Part shown: positions 604-4,751 of the stretch, piece by piece | Layout of the letters: every line of letters begins with the position of its first letter | Numbering within the stretch: the stretch's first letter is position 1 | Source: a virus | Taxonomy: Duplodnaviria; Heunggongvirae; Uroviricota; Caudoviricetes | IMG/VR virus record: IMGVR_UViG_2671180275_000007 | Length of the DNA stretch: 5,202 nucleotides | Reading direction: 5' to 3' (one strand) | The notes under the pieces: model-generated | Database searches by the model: none | The model's input: only the letters and a program-made list of their open reading frames with translations | Told to the model about the DNA's origin: nothing | Program-made: the position numbers and the translations under genes

Positions 604-1128
604 ATGCGGAAGTCAATTGCCGATAAAGAGTTATCTGACACACAAGCCCTTCAGGAAAACGACAGCATCACCGAATCCGTTGGTGCGGAAAACGACGATG
701 AACACCAAGAGGAAAAGAAAAAACGCACCTACAAAAAAGGGGCAACCTTGCGACTGGATGGCCCGGTAGCCGGACTTTGCTCACTTGAAAAAGGGGCAGC
801 CTATATCGGGTTGACAAAAGCTGCATTGCGCGTGGCGCTTCAGCGAAATCAGATGCCTGGACACAAGACCCGTTCAAACCCTGAAGATGAAAATTCGGAT
901 GGCGTATGGTGGTTTAACGCCAGAGAGTGGGACAAGCTGGCTGACGAACTACCAGAATGCGAGCCGCCAGAATGGCACAACTGGAAAAGCTACTGGACGT
1001 ACGACCGACAGAAAAGAAAGTTTTCCCCGGCAAACAAAGAAGACTGCCAGACCATCAATGGAAAGCGGGTTTACACAGGAAGAAAGTCAAAACTGGAGCA
1101 ACACCAATACAGCGAAGGCAACCAGTGA
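604..1128 (+). CDS. cox: Cox/Apl-like winged-HTH regulator/excisionase with acidic N-terminal and W/K/R-rich C-terminal extensions
   Basis: ATG 604 with AGAGGA 6 nt upstream. Central segment LEKGAAYIGLTKAALRVALQRNQMPG...GVWWFNAREWDKL has the HTH-plus-aromatic-wing pattern of P2 Cox as I recall it (AKLIGKSTGAVRRMIDKGKLPV...GEYWVYLPAWN) and of excisionase-type HTH domains. First gene to the right of the repressor, as for cox in P2. At 174 aa it is about twice the length of P2 Cox; an internal TTG at 745 with an AAAGGGG Shine-Dalgarno-like sequence would give a shorter Cox-sized N-terminus (alternative start). Confidence 0.65.
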   Translation: MRKSIADKELSDTQALQENDSITESVGAENDDEHQEEKKKRTYKKGATLRLDGPVAGLCSLEKGAAYIGLTKAALRVALQRNQMPGHKTRSNPEDENSDGVWWFNAREWDKLADELPECEPPEWHNWKSYWTYDRQKRKFSPANKEDCQTINGKRVYTGRKSKLEQHQYSEGNQ

Positions 1129-1179: not shown

Positions 1180-1374
1180 ATGACTGACTCCACTCAAACA
1201 AAAGACTTATACAGCGATTTACGCTTCATCATCATACAACAGCAATCAGGCAGGATGGATCCAACACGTGCAAGCAAGGCCTGGAAAGAAGCCCTTACCG
1301 ATCAGGGGATCGATGTAATTAGCGTAGTCATGGCTGAAGTGATTTTTAGGCTGTCAAGAGACGCGTCACTGTAA
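1180..1374 (+). CDS. Hypothetical small protein (64 aa), early operon
   Basis: ATG 1180 with GAAGGTG 5 nt upstream; same strand and tightly packed with neighbours. No recognisable motif. Confidence 0.5.
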   Translation: MTDSTQTKDLYSDLRFIIIQQQSGRMDPTRASKAWKEALTDQGIDVISVVMAEVIFRLSRDASL

Positions 1375-1399
1375 CCATTACATAAGGACCAGGTGAAGA

Positions 1400-1750
1400 A
1401 TGAAGCAACAACGAAATGCGCGCATCCATAACAACACTGAACGCCACAAATTGCGCAGTGGCGCAGAACGCAACGTTGCGTGTCAGTCCCACCGTAAAAA
1501 TGGTGCGACCGCAACCACTGAAATCCATGCAACACCTGACGGCCGCCCTGTAACACAAACCGGCAAACACACCTGGACGGTTGGCGATACCGGCATCGTC
1601 ATTCACAAAAGCCTTCGCAGCCCTGTTACTGGCAGATTTAATTTTTCTCTGACACGGGGTGATGAATATTTCGGGCAGGACTTCACACTTTTTGAAGCCT
1701 TAAGGACAGCAGACCGCCTGATAAACGGAAGAAGTTTTCACAACAACTAA
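1400..1750 (+). CDS. Hypothetical protein (116 aa), basic polar N-terminal half
   Basis: ATG 1400 preceded by AGGTGA (3-nt spacer) and AGGA (11 nt); fills the gap between neighbouring genes on the operon strand. N-terminal 60 aa are unusually polar/basic and contain two DNA palindromes (1452-1465, 1468-1481), so coding status is less certain than for the neighbours. Confidence 0.45.
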   Translation: MKQQRNARIHNNTERHKLRSGAERNVACQSHRKNGATATTEIHATPDGRPVTQTGKHTWTVGDTGIVIHKSLRSPVTGRFNFSLTRGDEYFGQDFTLFEALRTADRLINGRSFHNN

Positions 1751-1763
1751 CGCGGGTGGAAAT

Positions 1764-1988
1764 ATGAAAAAATATTATCTTTATGAAAGCACACGTGAGT
1801 CCGGGATAATTAAAATAAGTAGTATTAGCTCTGCTACCAGACATGACCGTGAAGTAAAAATTATTCTTAAAGAAGGTGTTGAAATTAATTTGATTACTGA
1901 CACGGAAAGCAACGCTGTTAAATGCGTAAGCGCAATAATAAAAACCATTAAAAATAGATCAAATCCTGCGGACTGGATTGTATTTTAA
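1764..1988 (+). CDS. Hypothetical protein (74 aa) in a sharply AT-rich segment; candidate horizontally acquired moron
   Basis: ATG 1764 with GGTGGA upstream. The ORF is visibly AT-rich (roughly one-third G+C by eye) against a roughly 50% G+C background. Protein MKKYYLYESTRESGIIKISSISS... is I/K/S-rich with no motif I recognise. Confidence 0.5.
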   Translation: MKKYYLYESTRESGIIKISSISSATRHDREVKIILKEGVEINLITDTESNAVKCVSAIIKTIKNRSNPADWIVF

Positions 1989-2012
1989 TCACAGGAGAGA
2001 AAGGAGACAGAC

Positions 2013-2252
2013 ATGAACAACCACTACAAACAATTAGTGAATTTGCTCCTTGAGCGCCACAGTTTTTCACTGGCAAAAACAAACGGAGAAAATAAAACTG
2101 CCGCCGACAACTCCCTGATACTGGGCCTCAGCGGGTTACAACAGGCAGCATTCTGCGCTGACGACAGTGAGGCGCTTACCGAAATAAACGAGCTCATCAG
2201 CCAGATGGATATTGATGGGTACATCCAGCCCTACAATCTGGCGGTCGTATGA
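2013..2252 (+). CDS. Hypothetical protein (79 aa)
   Basis: ATG 2013 with a strong AAGGAG Shine-Dalgarno 6 nt upstream (2001-2006). Stop TGA 2250-2252 overlaps the next start (ATGA). Confidence 0.65.
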   Translation: MNNHYKQLVNLLLERHSFSLAKTNGENKTAADNSLILGLSGLQQAAFCADDSEALTEINELISQMDIDGYIQPYNLAVV

Positions 2253-2353
2253 GTTCAACATTAATCATTATCGCGTCATGGGTGATATTACTGGCGTCAT
2301 TCGTTGTTTCTTATTTCGTGGTGAAGCTGCTTACTCAATATTTAAATCTGTAA
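2249..2353 (+). CDS. Unannotated 34-aa hydrophobic single-pass membrane peptide (MSSTLIIIASWVILLASFVVSYFVVKLLTQYLNL)
   Basis: Not in the ORF track (below length cut-off). ATG 2249-2251 overlaps the upstream stop as ATGA; own translation gives one about 21-residue hydrophobic helix with a short polar tail; stop TAA 2351-2353. Segment is AT-rich. Size and composition resemble phage Kil-type or type I toxin-type membrane peptides. Confidence 0.45.
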   Translation: MSSTLIIIASWVILLASFVVSYFVVKLLTQYLNL

Positions 2354-2401
2354 CAGCAAATGAACTTCCGATAACACCAGAACACACATGAACAGTTAAT
2401 T

Positions 2402-2438
2402 AAGGCATTCATGCCTTCGGGTTCCCTTTGTCTTTTTT
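2402..2438 (+). terminator. Candidate attenuator/weak intrinsic terminator or palindromic protein site: AAGGCATtcATGCCTT then T-tract
   Basis: Near-perfect 16-bp palindrome at 2402-2417 (6-bp stem, 4-nt loop as RNA), preceded by the TTAATTAA palindrome (2396-2403) and followed 13 nt later by TCTTTTTT (2431-2438), just upstream of the RBS of the next gene. The T-tract is not contiguous with the stem, so not a canonical terminator. Confidence 0.3.
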
Positions 2439-2450
2439 CAGGAGACAACA

Positions 2451-2684
2451 ATGAAAACCGTTAAATCACCTGACAAAGAAATAAGCACCGGACAGGAGCA
2501 CATGCACGCACATATCAGCATGGCCGCAAGAAATGCCGAGCGTGCGCATATCTGCGAAATACTGCGCGAGCGGATTGACGGGATGAAAGAAATTAACGCA
2601 TCCCCGGAACAAATCTACTCAGCCATTGAGCGATTAATTGCTGTGCTCATGAACACCCGTGAACAGAAAGGTAACGCACAATGA
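2451..2684 (+). CDS. Hypothetical protein (77 aa)
   Basis: ATG 2451 with AGGAGA 6 nt upstream; stop overlaps the exonuclease start as ATGA (2681-2684). No motif recognised. Confidence 0.65.
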   Translation: MKTVKSPDKEISTGQEHMHAHISMAARNAERAHICEILRERIDGMKEINASPEQIYSAIERLIAVLMNTREQKGNAQ

Positions 2685-3262
2685 ACCACCTCATGATTGA
2701 CACTGAAACACTGGGCTCCGGACCGGATGCCGTCATATTCGCAATTGGCGCGGTGTTTTTCGACCCGTTCACCGGAAAGCTGGGCAAGCAGTTTGAGCAA
2801 TTCATCGACCCGGTGGATTCAGAACGCAACGGCGGAACCGTCAATGCAGCAACCACTGTATGGTGGGCCGGACAATCCGTGGAAGCCAGAGCCTGCCTGC
2901 GCAACGCAAAGGGAACAGAGCTTGCAGCAGTGACCGAATTTCTGGCGTTCATTTCACGCAACATGCATGACGAAAGCCCGGGCAATTCACTGACCATATG
3001 GTGCAAGGGCGCATCCTTCGATTTCCCGATCCTGAAATCCGCCATAACACGCACAGCCGGAGAAAAAAGCATTCCGTGGTGCTACTGGAACGAGCGCTGT
3101 ATGCGCCCGCTTATCGCCATGGCTGAGTCAACGGGCTGGAAAATGCCAGGCAGATCAGGAAAAGAGGCCATTGCTCACACCGCACTAAGCGACGCCATTT
3201 ACCAGGCAAAGATCGTGTCAGAAATCTGGCAGCGCTTCACAACACCATTCCTGAACATATGA
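2681..3262 (+). CDS. DEDDh-family 3'-5' exonuclease, small DnaQ/RNase T-like fold (Rv2179c-like)
   Basis: Exo I motif MIDTETLG at the N-terminus (D-x-E), Exo II-like IWCKGASFDFPIL, Exo III HTALSDAIYQA (H-x4-D) near the C-terminus. Size (193 aa) and motif spacing match the short phage/actinobacterial Rv2179c-like exonuclease family as I recall it. Translationally coupled to the upstream ORF. Confidence 0.85.
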   Translation: MNHLMIDTETLGSGPDAVIFAIGAVFFDPFTGKLGKQFEQFIDPVDSERNGGTVNAATTVWWAGQSVEARACLRNAKGTELAAVTEFLAFISRNMHDESPGNSLTIWCKGASFDFPILKSAITRTAGEKSIPWCYWNERCMRPLIAMAESTGWKMPGRSGKEAIAHTALSDAIYQAKIVSEIWQRFTTPFLNI

Positions 3263-3271
3263 GGTGAAGCC

Positions 3272-3499
3272 ATGGTCGCCATCCTGAATATGCGTTGCCG
3301 CCCCCCCCTGAACGTGGAAACAAAAGCCCGCACGTCTCTGCGCTTATTTCGCAACGGAGCGCGGAATTTTTCACGCATAAAGCCCCACGACTACCTGGTC
3401 ATAAGAATCGGTTTTCGCTGGCGATTACTGAGCAAAAACAACGGGAAGTCATGGGATTTATTAACGCACGAAACCTATAACAGAGAGGCCGCGTTATGA
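3272..3499 (+). CDS. Hypothetical basic protein (75 aa) containing a C8 homopolymer tract; coupled to dam
   Basis: ATG 3272 with GAGGTG 5 nt upstream; stop TGA 3497-3499 overlaps the dam ATG 3496-3498 (ATGA). R/K-rich product (MVAILNMRCRPPLNVETKAR...). The C8 run at 3301-3308 encodes RPPL. Coding status rests on RBS and coupling geometry only. Confidence 0.4.
   Translation: MVAILNMRCRPPLNVETKARTSLRLFRNGARNFSRIKPHDYLVIRIGFRWRLLSKNNGKSWDLLTHETYNREAAL
3301..3308. repeat. Homopolymeric C8 tract (G8 on the minus strand)
   Basis: Read directly: gccgCCCCCCCCtg at 3297-3310; the only homopolymer of 8 or more G/C I can see in the window. Lies 30 nt into ORF 3272..3499. Confidence 0.9.
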
Positions 3500-4505: not shown

Positions 4506-4751
4506 GTGAATAACAAAAGCACGCAGCAATCAATCGTCGTTTCAGCACTGAGATATCTGGCCTGCATCAAACAACAGGAAGCAAGAGAGGCGGTGGAGAA
4601 GCGGGATTCGGGGATATTTGTGGCACTTGGACACAGCTATACGGCAATGCTTGCCAGCAGGTCCGCTGAATTCATTGAGGAGCAGCAACGGGAAATTGAG
4701 GCACTTAAAACCGCAGCAAACAAGGAACGGAGAGGAAGGGGCGAACAATGA
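4506..4751 (+). CDS. Hypothetical protein (about 81 aa; GTG start favoured, ATG 4479 alternative)
   Basis: In-frame with track ORF 4368..4751, whose first 33 codons overlap the dam 3' end (dam stop 4468-4470) and are unlikely to be translated. GTG 4506 is preceded by AGGAG (4494-4498) at 7 nt; ATG 4479 lacks an RBS. C-terminal part is charged and coiled-coil-like (EEQQREIEALKTAANKERR). Confidence 0.5.
   Translation: MNNKSTQQSIVVSALRYLACIKQQEAREAVEKRDSGIFVALGHSYTAMLASRSAEFIEEQQREIEALKTAANKERRGRGEQ

Follow-up and report, generated by a model that had tools for sequence, protein, structure and literature searches.

A small gene of phage P88, gp07 (YP_009113050), encodes a 37-amino acid (aa) product that RefSeq names 'membrane protein' and, like the gene described here, starts on the stop codon of a DUF4754 gene (ATGA) in a P2-like early operon. 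Its homologues, grouped here as type A, occur in prophages of Escherichia coli, Shigella and Salmonella (as 'Prophage membrane protein' in UniRef), and the corresponding open reading frame (ORF) of phage 520873 is present, unannotated. These proteins, again like the one described here, are without characterised function. In phages 186 and P2 terminators are annotated in the equivalent slot of the early region: in 186 this is tR1, behind fil-dhr, and in P2 a putative rho-independent terminator behind gene B. Each precedes a gene of ~75 aa. Here we analysed a 5,202-nt stretch of viral DNA (the window) from the Caudoviricetes record IMGVR_UViG_2671180275_000007 of IMG/VR, which covers the early lytic operon of a P2-like prophage at its left end and whose nearest named phages are those of the Xuanwuvirus group, P88 and 520873. 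Our subject is a 34-aa micro-ORF of the window that begins on the stop codon of its DUF4754 gene. We conclude that it is very probably a real, translated gene for a membrane micro-protein, and the fuller reading, that of a coupled inner-membrane micro-protein gene expressed early in lytic growth with host takeover as its most likely class of function, seems to us probable, with less assurance.

The micro-ORF (2249-2353, plus strand) encodes exactly MSSTLIIIASWVILLASFVVSYFVVKLLTQYLNL, the peptide reported in the first-pass annotation of this DNA, and its ATG (2249-2251) indeed overlaps the TGA of the 79-aa DUF4754 ORF (2013-2252), as that annotation had stated. Further ATGA junctions are found in the operon at 2681-2684, 3496-3499 and 4748-4751. 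The weak Shine-Dalgarno-like element upstream of the ATG forms a duplex of -6.0 kcal/mol with the 3' end of 16S rRNA, close to the values for the coupled dam (-6.5) and exonuclease (-4.0) genes of the same operon, and this similarity was counted as support for translation of the micro-ORF.

The single transmembrane (TM) helix claimed for the peptide is borne out by prediction. Its maximal Kyte-Doolittle hydropathy over 19 residues (2.47) is the highest among the 43 ATG-initiated ORFs of at least 25 aa in the window, and ORFs of 30 aa or more that match it in hydrophobicity arise in only 0.1% of the sequences obtained by shuffling the local 300 nt and in 4% of those from shuffling the whole window. 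For the best TM segment, at residues 5-25, the apparent insertion energies add up to an estimated value of about -2.5 kcal/mol, and AlphaFold2, run on the family alignment, returned one continuous helix over residues 3-32 with a pLDDT of 90. The N-terminal flank MSST contains neither lysine nor arginine and K26 stands directly after the helix, which by the positive-inside rule suggests a peptide with its N-terminus outside and its C-terminus inside. The surrounding DNA (2250-2399) has a GC content of 0.35-0.36 and is the sole T-rich stretch (AT skew -0.28) in the profiled region 1300-3000; T occupies 56% of second codon positions, as expected of hydrophobic codons. The AT-rich patch described earlier is therefore there, but it is not continuous with the AT-rich 74-aa ORF upstream, since the DUF4754 gene, normal in GC content, intervenes.

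Because the window lineage is invariant, the conserved upstream DUF4754 gene was used as the anchor for finding related loci, and 107 DUF4754 loci of Escherichia-type P2-like prophages were examined. An intact hydrophobic micro-ORF of 34-49 aa with a single membrane pass was present at the DUF4754 stop in all 107, the junction being ATGA in 105 loci and TAAATG in two. Frameshifts and stop codons, which the first-pass annotation had proposed to look for in relatives as signs against the frame, were found at none of these junctions. At the P88-type loci the ATGA-coupled ORF was intact in 83 of 83; the ratio of nonsynonymous to synonymous polymorphism (pN/pS) of type A was 0.16 in the coding frame, whereas the two alternative frames gave 2.1 and 0.87; its variable sites were distributed 6/5/18 over the codon positions, so that 18 of 29 lay at third positions. 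The STEC-type loci (12) carry an intact 41-aa form of the type A ORF that is annotated by the Prokaryotic Genome Annotation Pipeline (PGAP). Six further loci (L093 and L102-L106), designated type D, have a DUF4754 protein ~50% identical to that of the window and are its closest relatives available. Their ORFs (46-49 aa) begin on the DUF4754 stop (ATGA) or abut it (TAAATG); gene finders called the one in L093 and left the other five uncalled. Every indel in type D is a multiple of three, and the ratio of nonsynonymous to synonymous substitution rates (dN/dS) is 0.2-0.6. An hhalign comparison shows types A and D to be homologous (probability 95%, E=1.9e-8), and both are under purifying, coding-type selection in the frame of the micro-ORF. 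An exhaustive HMMER search of 1.84 billion representative sequences gave 16 matches, all in this prophage type, showing that the family is narrow by sequence: it consists of membrane micro-proteins of 34-49 aa encoded directly after DUF4754 in P88-like (Xuanwuvirus-like) P2-family prophages of Escherichia and Citrobacter.

One design is common to all types, namely a few uncharged residues, S-W-x5-S inside a single hydrophobic helix and a basic residue 14-15 positions past the Trp, and the S10-W11...S17 of the window peptide aligns with this motif in types A, B and D (type B is described below); in two distant type A variants the second Ser is replaced by Ala. P88 gp07 and the other type A proteins match the window peptide in having one TM helix, no charge before it, the S-W-x5-S motif and a basic residue 15 positions past the conserved Trp, whereas their sequence identity to it is 17-25% and the profile match is weak (hhalign E=7e-4, probability 26%), although in register, with SW on SW and K26 on R/K. 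The match to type D is likewise weak and in register (E=2e-3, probability 12%). In an ungapped alignment with the L093 peptide, 10 of 34 positions are identical, including M1, S2, S10, W11, S17, V19, V25, K26 and L27. It is synteny, coupling and shared design, joined by this weak in-register similarity, that place the window peptide in the family. It differs from its relatives in the C-terminal tail, which is KLLTQYLNL (9 aa, one K) in the window peptide, 14-23 aa with 4-7 K/R in the relatives at large, and charged, 16-20 aa long and presumably cytoplasmic in type A. We accordingly regard the window peptide as a divergent, almost tail-less member of the family, whose short tail may mark either a minimal form or a truncation of the allele.

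A second hydrophobic micro-ORF, type B, was observed in some of the relatives. It encodes 31-33 aa (MKNVK[VA]I[LH]TIAT[AV]WVIFQVSALIWLALK...) within a 135-nt insert that separates the type A ORF from the conserved non-coding block described below, at 2881-2982 in L002 and also in L087-L092, L098, L099 and L101. PGAP annotates none of these copies, and the ORF occurs as the called proteins P0137 and P0141. The evidence that type B is coding is weak, with a Shine-Dalgarno duplex of -1.8 kcal/mol, three nonsynonymous and two synonymous changes, a 1-nt indel near the end and a marginal insertion energy (-0.26). Homology of the window peptide to type B was considered, both starting ~152 nt 5' of the hairpin of the block, and was rejected as a coincidence of length, for the type A ORFs that abut the block start at ~156 nt.

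The short tail raises the question of whether the window ORF is a family gene in decay or cut short, still open and hydrophobic by descent, stripped of its cytoplasmic tail and non-functional or barely translated. Every relative retains the longer basic tail, and past the TAA of the micro-ORF (window 2351-2374) six codons, QQMNFR, stay open in frame until a TAA just inside the conserved block. Were the stop read through, or replaced at 2351 by a sense codon, the product would reach 41 aa, as long as that of the STEC-type relatives, and these codons may be the trace of a longer ancestral gene. The window-type lineage is also rare (4 of 5426 E. coli genomes and a few metagenome contigs), PGAP is silent on its micro-ORF, and the invariant copies give no signal of selection. 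On the other side, the helix, the SW-x5-S motif, the start overlap and the Shine-Dalgarno-like element are all intact, and seven window-type copies from different strains and samples, including one on a 190-kb metagenome contig, keep an identical stop and an identical micro-ORF despite substitutions in nearby DNA; moreover, functional small membrane proteins of bacteria are often ~30 aa long and almost tail-less (PMC12648545). We therefore regard decay as unlikely and retain the view that the micro-ORF is a working gene.

The gene had been called unannotated, which is only half correct. PGAP indeed calls nothing here in four RefSeq E. coli genomes with an identical prophage. However, the peptide is identical to GenBank DAV59207.1 ('MAG TPA: hypothetical protein [Caudoviricetes sp.]'), homologues such as P88 gp07 are annotated, and the exact 34-aa peptide was called on two contigs from metagenomes or the Sequence Read Archive. 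No significant match to the peptide was found in Pfam, PHROGs, NCBIfam or PADLOC, and a PDB sequence search with it found no match. A tblastn search of 50,697 phage records returned no match for the 34-aa peptide or for a type D peptide, probably due to low-complexity masking. The DUF4754 protein of the window falls in only two clusters (97% and 51% identity) among 5.8 billion proteins, and a metagenome scan for closer relatives yielded one extra copy with an identical micro-ORF. A DUF4754 profile run against a species-level genome collection gave a single match, the P88-type locus L006 (NZ_JBQPOM010000071.1); its contig is labelled Vagococcus sp., a Gram-positive genus, which suggests that the assembly is contaminated or mislabelled.

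Downstream of the micro-ORF, the features noted in the first-pass annotation are all present: a 97-nt gap (2354-2450), a palindrome (2402-2417) and a T-run (2433-2438). Most of the gap is occupied by a conserved non-coding block (ATAACACCAG...CAGGAGACAACA) that is 92-94% identical in 22 other E. coli prophages, where the adjoining downstream coding sequence is ~78% identical and the DNA of the upstream genes cannot be aligned. The layout differs among relatives, the type A stop abutting the block in some and the 135-nt insert with the type B ORF intervening in others. The stem of the hairpin, AGGCA/TGCCT with flanking A-T pairs, is GC-rich and at least five pairs long, as in a canonical terminator, and its pairs are kept 5/5 with five different stem sequences in five lineages (chance roughly 1e-5, with the stems chosen by eye). 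The T-run, however, begins 15 nt past the stem rather than directly after it, and a terminator scan of 1700-2800 found none, while the same scan detects 186 tR1 and the P2 terminator. Rfam gave no match on either strand of the gap region, and folding z-scores were not significant. As for the suggestion that the palindrome and T-run could terminate transcription, the position in the terminator slot of 186 and P2 and the hairpin kept in five lineages speak for it, and the failed scan and the folding z-scores speak against it.

The window, 186 and P2 elements have in common TTAATTAA, a short hairpin, GG.(A)TTC and a T-rich run. In distant Peduoviridae this slot (window 2371-2450; L002 3001-3082; 186, L107, 2868-2933; P2, L108, 2460-2522; P88, L003, 3060-3130) likewise shows TTAATTAA, a short hairpin with lineage-specific stems and GG.(A)TTC, often twice and 13-16 nt apart. 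P88-type blocks are without the T-run, so that the conserved role may be pausing, processing or control of translation of the next gene, and the block may be a cis element shared across the family, with a role that plain termination does not cover. RNAfold also predicts, in its minimum-energy structure, a second hairpin in which the T-run pairs with the AGGAG Shine-Dalgarno sequence of the following 77-aa gene; in relatives this pairing, which is a prediction only, is weakened by an uncompensated A-to-T change. At window 2441 the first G of that Shine-Dalgarno sequence is a T (CAGGAG to CATGAG) in the window-type copies L095, L109 and L110, and the same change occurs independently in L098 and L099, a recurrent site within the predicted sequestering hairpin. 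A hidden ORF in the block was considered and rejected. The seven variable sites at 2383-2450 fall in only two of the three codon phases, and on the minus strand a frame, MNALINCSCVFWCY (…EGMNALINCSCVFWCY…), stays open in every variant; with so few sites (p about 0.06) and two Cys-to-Arg changes in one lineage, the pattern is probably chance.

The micro-ORF ends 17 nt 5' of this highly conserved block in the terminator slot, and its peptide sequence diverges strongly between lineages. Both facts would fit a scheme in which the peptide is irrelevant and the act of translating the ORF controls the hairpin block, by shielding from Rho or by setting read-through into the replication genes. We hold this to be very unlikely. 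Purifying selection in types A and D acts at the level of amino acids, and the helix, the SW motif and the basic residue after the helix are kept across lineages whose DNA cannot be aligned. The distance from stop to hairpin, 49 nt here and variable elsewhere (with the 135-nt insert in some), is moreover too long and too variable for attenuation by a ribosome near the hairpin, which is thereby disfavoured.

The first-pass annotation had also raised the idea of a type I toxin-like peptide, which would be controlled by an antisense or nearby small RNA over 2249-2450. The size and hydrophobicity of the peptide fit, some such systems reside in prophages (PMC12648545), and a conserved non-coding block with a hairpin lies directly 3'. 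Consensus scans, however, found no sigma-70-like promoter and no terminator-like site on either strand of 2249-2450, the two promoter-like matches in 1700-2800 being at chance level and outside that interval; Rfam has no match on either strand, and the block is accounted for by its equivalence to the 186/P2 terminator slot. Nor has the micro-ORF a transcription unit of its own: it is start/stop-coupled inside the operon, as are 105 of 107 relatives, the opposite of an independently transcribed, translation-repressed design. The idea did not survive these comparisons and is, in our estimate, extremely improbable.

Another alternative is superinfection exclusion or lysogenic conversion: made from the prophage, the peptide would block the DNA entry of other phages at the inner membrane. 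It would indeed be a small inner-membrane protein encoded in a prophage, in an AT-rich region of the kind that holds many accessory 'moron' genes. Against this, the gene sits in the early lytic operon 3' of the Cox-like gene, where the immunity repressor would shut it off in the lysogen, and a consensus scan found no promoter-like site above chance near the ORF (weak or activator-dependent promoters could escape such a scan). The strict linkage to DUF4754 is unlike that of a free-standing moron, and PADLOC has no match. Exclusion thus appears improbable to us, and we return to a gene of the lytic cycle.

As an early lytic gene, the micro-ORF would be transcribed with the early operon from the Cox-side promoter, which a C-type repressor would keep off in the lysogen. 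Ribosomes just finishing DUF4754 would then translate it by termination-reinitiation at the ATGA, aided by the weak Shine-Dalgarno-like element, so that both proteins would be made together. The peptide would insert N-out/C-in and, during lytic growth or induction, would act at the inner membrane, either as a tether or partner of the soluble DUF4754 protein or through binding to some larger membrane protein of the host; small membrane proteins of bacteria mostly act on larger membrane proteins (PMC12648545). The strict coupling suggests that DUF4754 and the micro-protein act together. As the last gene before the conserved hairpin block, the micro-ORF occupies the slot where 186 has its host-directed fil and dhr genes, for which reason host takeover is the most likely class of function; a host-directed early function, drawn from this analogy, is put forward tentatively, as possible rather than probable. 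Neither the peptide nor DUF4754 has BLASTP similarity to Fil or Dhr of 186. The Kil-like, host-killing or division-inhibiting role raised in the first-pass annotation is conjecture, with evidence neither way: the likeness to fil/dhr is one of operon position, and the family searches with the peptide gave no match. A rather doubtful extension would make DUF4754 and the micro-protein a two-part, membrane-anchored early effector, in which a soluble three-helix bundle is recruited to the inner membrane by an anchor of 34-49 aa and hijacks a host membrane process such as division, envelope proteolysis or the attachment of DNA to the membrane, as the P88-like counterpart of the 186 fil/dhr block. 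The supported claims of function stop at 'early, membrane, coupled to DUF4754', and proteins of this kind are already in the databases without a Pfam or PHROG family.

The AlphaFold2 model of DUF4754 (pLDDT 95) is a generic bundle of three helices followed by an extended C-terminal tail, and a Foldseek search of the PDB with this model gave no significant neighbour (best E=2.4). Natural fusions of DUF4754 to the peptide were sought as Rosetta-stone evidence; the 103-128-aa 'DUF4754' proteins proved to be frameshifted read-throughs from low-coverage assemblies and were discarded. A Klebsiella phage (ST16-OXA48phi5.4, L005 2210-2587) encodes a 125-aa protein without a Pfam match that is a distant DUF4754 homologue (hhalign 93%, E=3.5e-7) and carries a soluble 46-aa C-terminal extension where the coupled membrane micro-ORF sits elsewhere. 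The pairing of DUF4754 with a micro-protein holds for the Escherichia and Citrobacter lineages, not universally.

Several points weigh against the interpretation of the window micro-ORF as an early, host-directed membrane gene. Its translation and membrane localisation are predictions from sequence and models; the seven window-type copies do not vary and thus offer no measure of selection on the 34-aa allele; and PGAP passes over it. By sequence alone its similarity to types A and D is weak (hhalign probabilities 12-26%), and a peptide without the charged tail of its relatives could be a truncated and possibly inactive allele. The generic fold of DUF4754 gives no functional clue, the Klebsiella homologue is without a membrane partner, and a literature search for DUF4754, the peptide sequences or the P88 gp07 gene found nothing, while for tR1 of 186 it brought up papers on lambda tR1 only.

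Even so, the analysis defines a compact module, DUF4754 plus a coupled single-helix micro-protein before the terminator slot, in a large group of enterobacterial P2-like prophages, and this module is a concrete starting point for the study of early host takeover in P2-like phages. It also reveals inconsistent automated annotation of one gene slot, which is called in P88 and the STEC-type and missed in the window type and in five of six type D loci, and it brings out the conserved element of the terminator slot. Provided that the gene is real, as the evidence indicates, a prophage carried by clinical E. coli gains a gene that had been overlooked. Nothing known is overturned, small phage membrane proteins of this kind being common.

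The features of the window are collected in the table below.

Table. Features of the 5,202-nt window around the micro-ORF; positions are counted from its first nucleotide.
Feature	Position	Strand	Basis or remark
Cox-like regulator	604-1128	+	
64-aa ORF	between Cox-like regulator and DUF4761	+	
DUF4761	1400-1750	+	
AT-rich 74-aa ORF	1764-1988	+	GC about 0.30-0.38; no family match
DUF4754 gene, 79 aa	2013-2252	+	Pfam PF15946, E=7e-13; stop overlaps micro-ORF start
Weak Shine-Dalgarno-like GGCGG	2240-2244	+	4 nt 5' of micro-ORF ATG, within DUF4754 end
ATGA start/stop overlap, translational coupling junction	2249-2252	+	read directly from sequence
Micro-ORF, 34 aa, MSSTLIIIASWVILLASFVVSYFVVKLLTQYLNL	2249-2353	+	read from sequence; exact match GenBank DAV59207.1
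Predicted TM helix codons, residues 5-25	2261-2323	+	hydropathy and insertion energy; S10-W11-x5-S17 within, K26 after
Conserved non-coding block (ATAACACCAG...CAGGAGACAACA)	2371-2450	+	80 nt, between micro-ORF and 77-aa gene
Palindrome/hairpin AAGGCAT-TC-ATGCCTT	2402-2417	+	position and design match 186 tR1 hairpin and P2 putative terminator
Second predicted hairpin, T-run (2433-2438) pairing with AGGAG Shine-Dalgarno of 77-aa gene	2428-2448	+	RNAfold minimum-energy structure
77-aa gene	2451-2684	+	PHROG 22206, E=2.4e-25; first gene past conserved block
ParE-like toxin-domain gene	3272-3499		Pfam PF24732, E=7e-18; stop overlaps Dam methylase start (ATGA)

An identical copy of the window adjoins rraA in E. 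coli JNEC-KY179, flanked on the opposite strand by an integrase gene and a helix-turn-helix (HTH) repressor gene. On the plus strand, the 77-aa gene is followed by a 3'-5' exonuclease, the ParE-like gene and Dam, and later by a derepression protein and a replication endonuclease. The gene set of the operon (integrase, HTH repressor, Cox-like regulator, DUF4761, DUF4754, exonuclease, Dam and replication endonuclease) is ordered as in P2-like phages. The 77-aa gene stands in the slot of the DUF2732 genes of 186 and P2; its product has no Pfam match, whereas 186 gp34 matches DUF2732. The slot of the 74-aa ORF is hypervariable, being empty in L002 and filled by unrelated ORFs of 70-93 aa in L097, L098, P88 and L102. 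No recognisable antitoxin gene was found adjoining the ParE-like gene. PGAP starts the 3'-5' exonuclease 12 nt 3' of the ATG at 2681 (2681-2693; L001 6794); a start at 2681, where ATGA couples it to the end of the 77-aa gene, seems no less plausible.

Set beside known systems, the window gene is nearest to type D in its partner, the type D DUF4754 being the closest available, and in a start that overlaps or abuts the DUF4754 stop. Type D peptides differ from it in that their charged tail is long (...SKLDEENSADINKHNHK) and another Trp follows the helix; at their loci the downstream module and the hairpin block (CCGCATTTGCGG-AGGTATTCGC) are also different. The fil/dhr-tR1 region of 186 and the B-terminator region of P2 resemble the window module in position, with small early genes that close the first early block before a hairpin element and, as at the window, a roughly 75-aa gene next that opens the replication-associated block. 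Unlike the window peptide, Fil and Dhr are not membrane proteins by sequence, and the 186 and P2 elements pass the canonical terminator scan that the window element does not. Type I toxins of the Hok, TisB, Ibs and Ldr class are, like the window peptide, short and very hydrophobic with a single helix; the antisense RNA gene, own promoter and structured leader that go with them were not found at the window ORF, which is operon-coupled. MgtS (31 aa) and MgtR (30 aa), reviewed in PMC12648545, have no sequence relationship to the window peptide and are chromosomal and stress-regulated, not phage early genes coupled to a soluble partner. They nevertheless match it in size and in their single helix, and they illustrate its likely mode of action, the modulation of a larger membrane protein.

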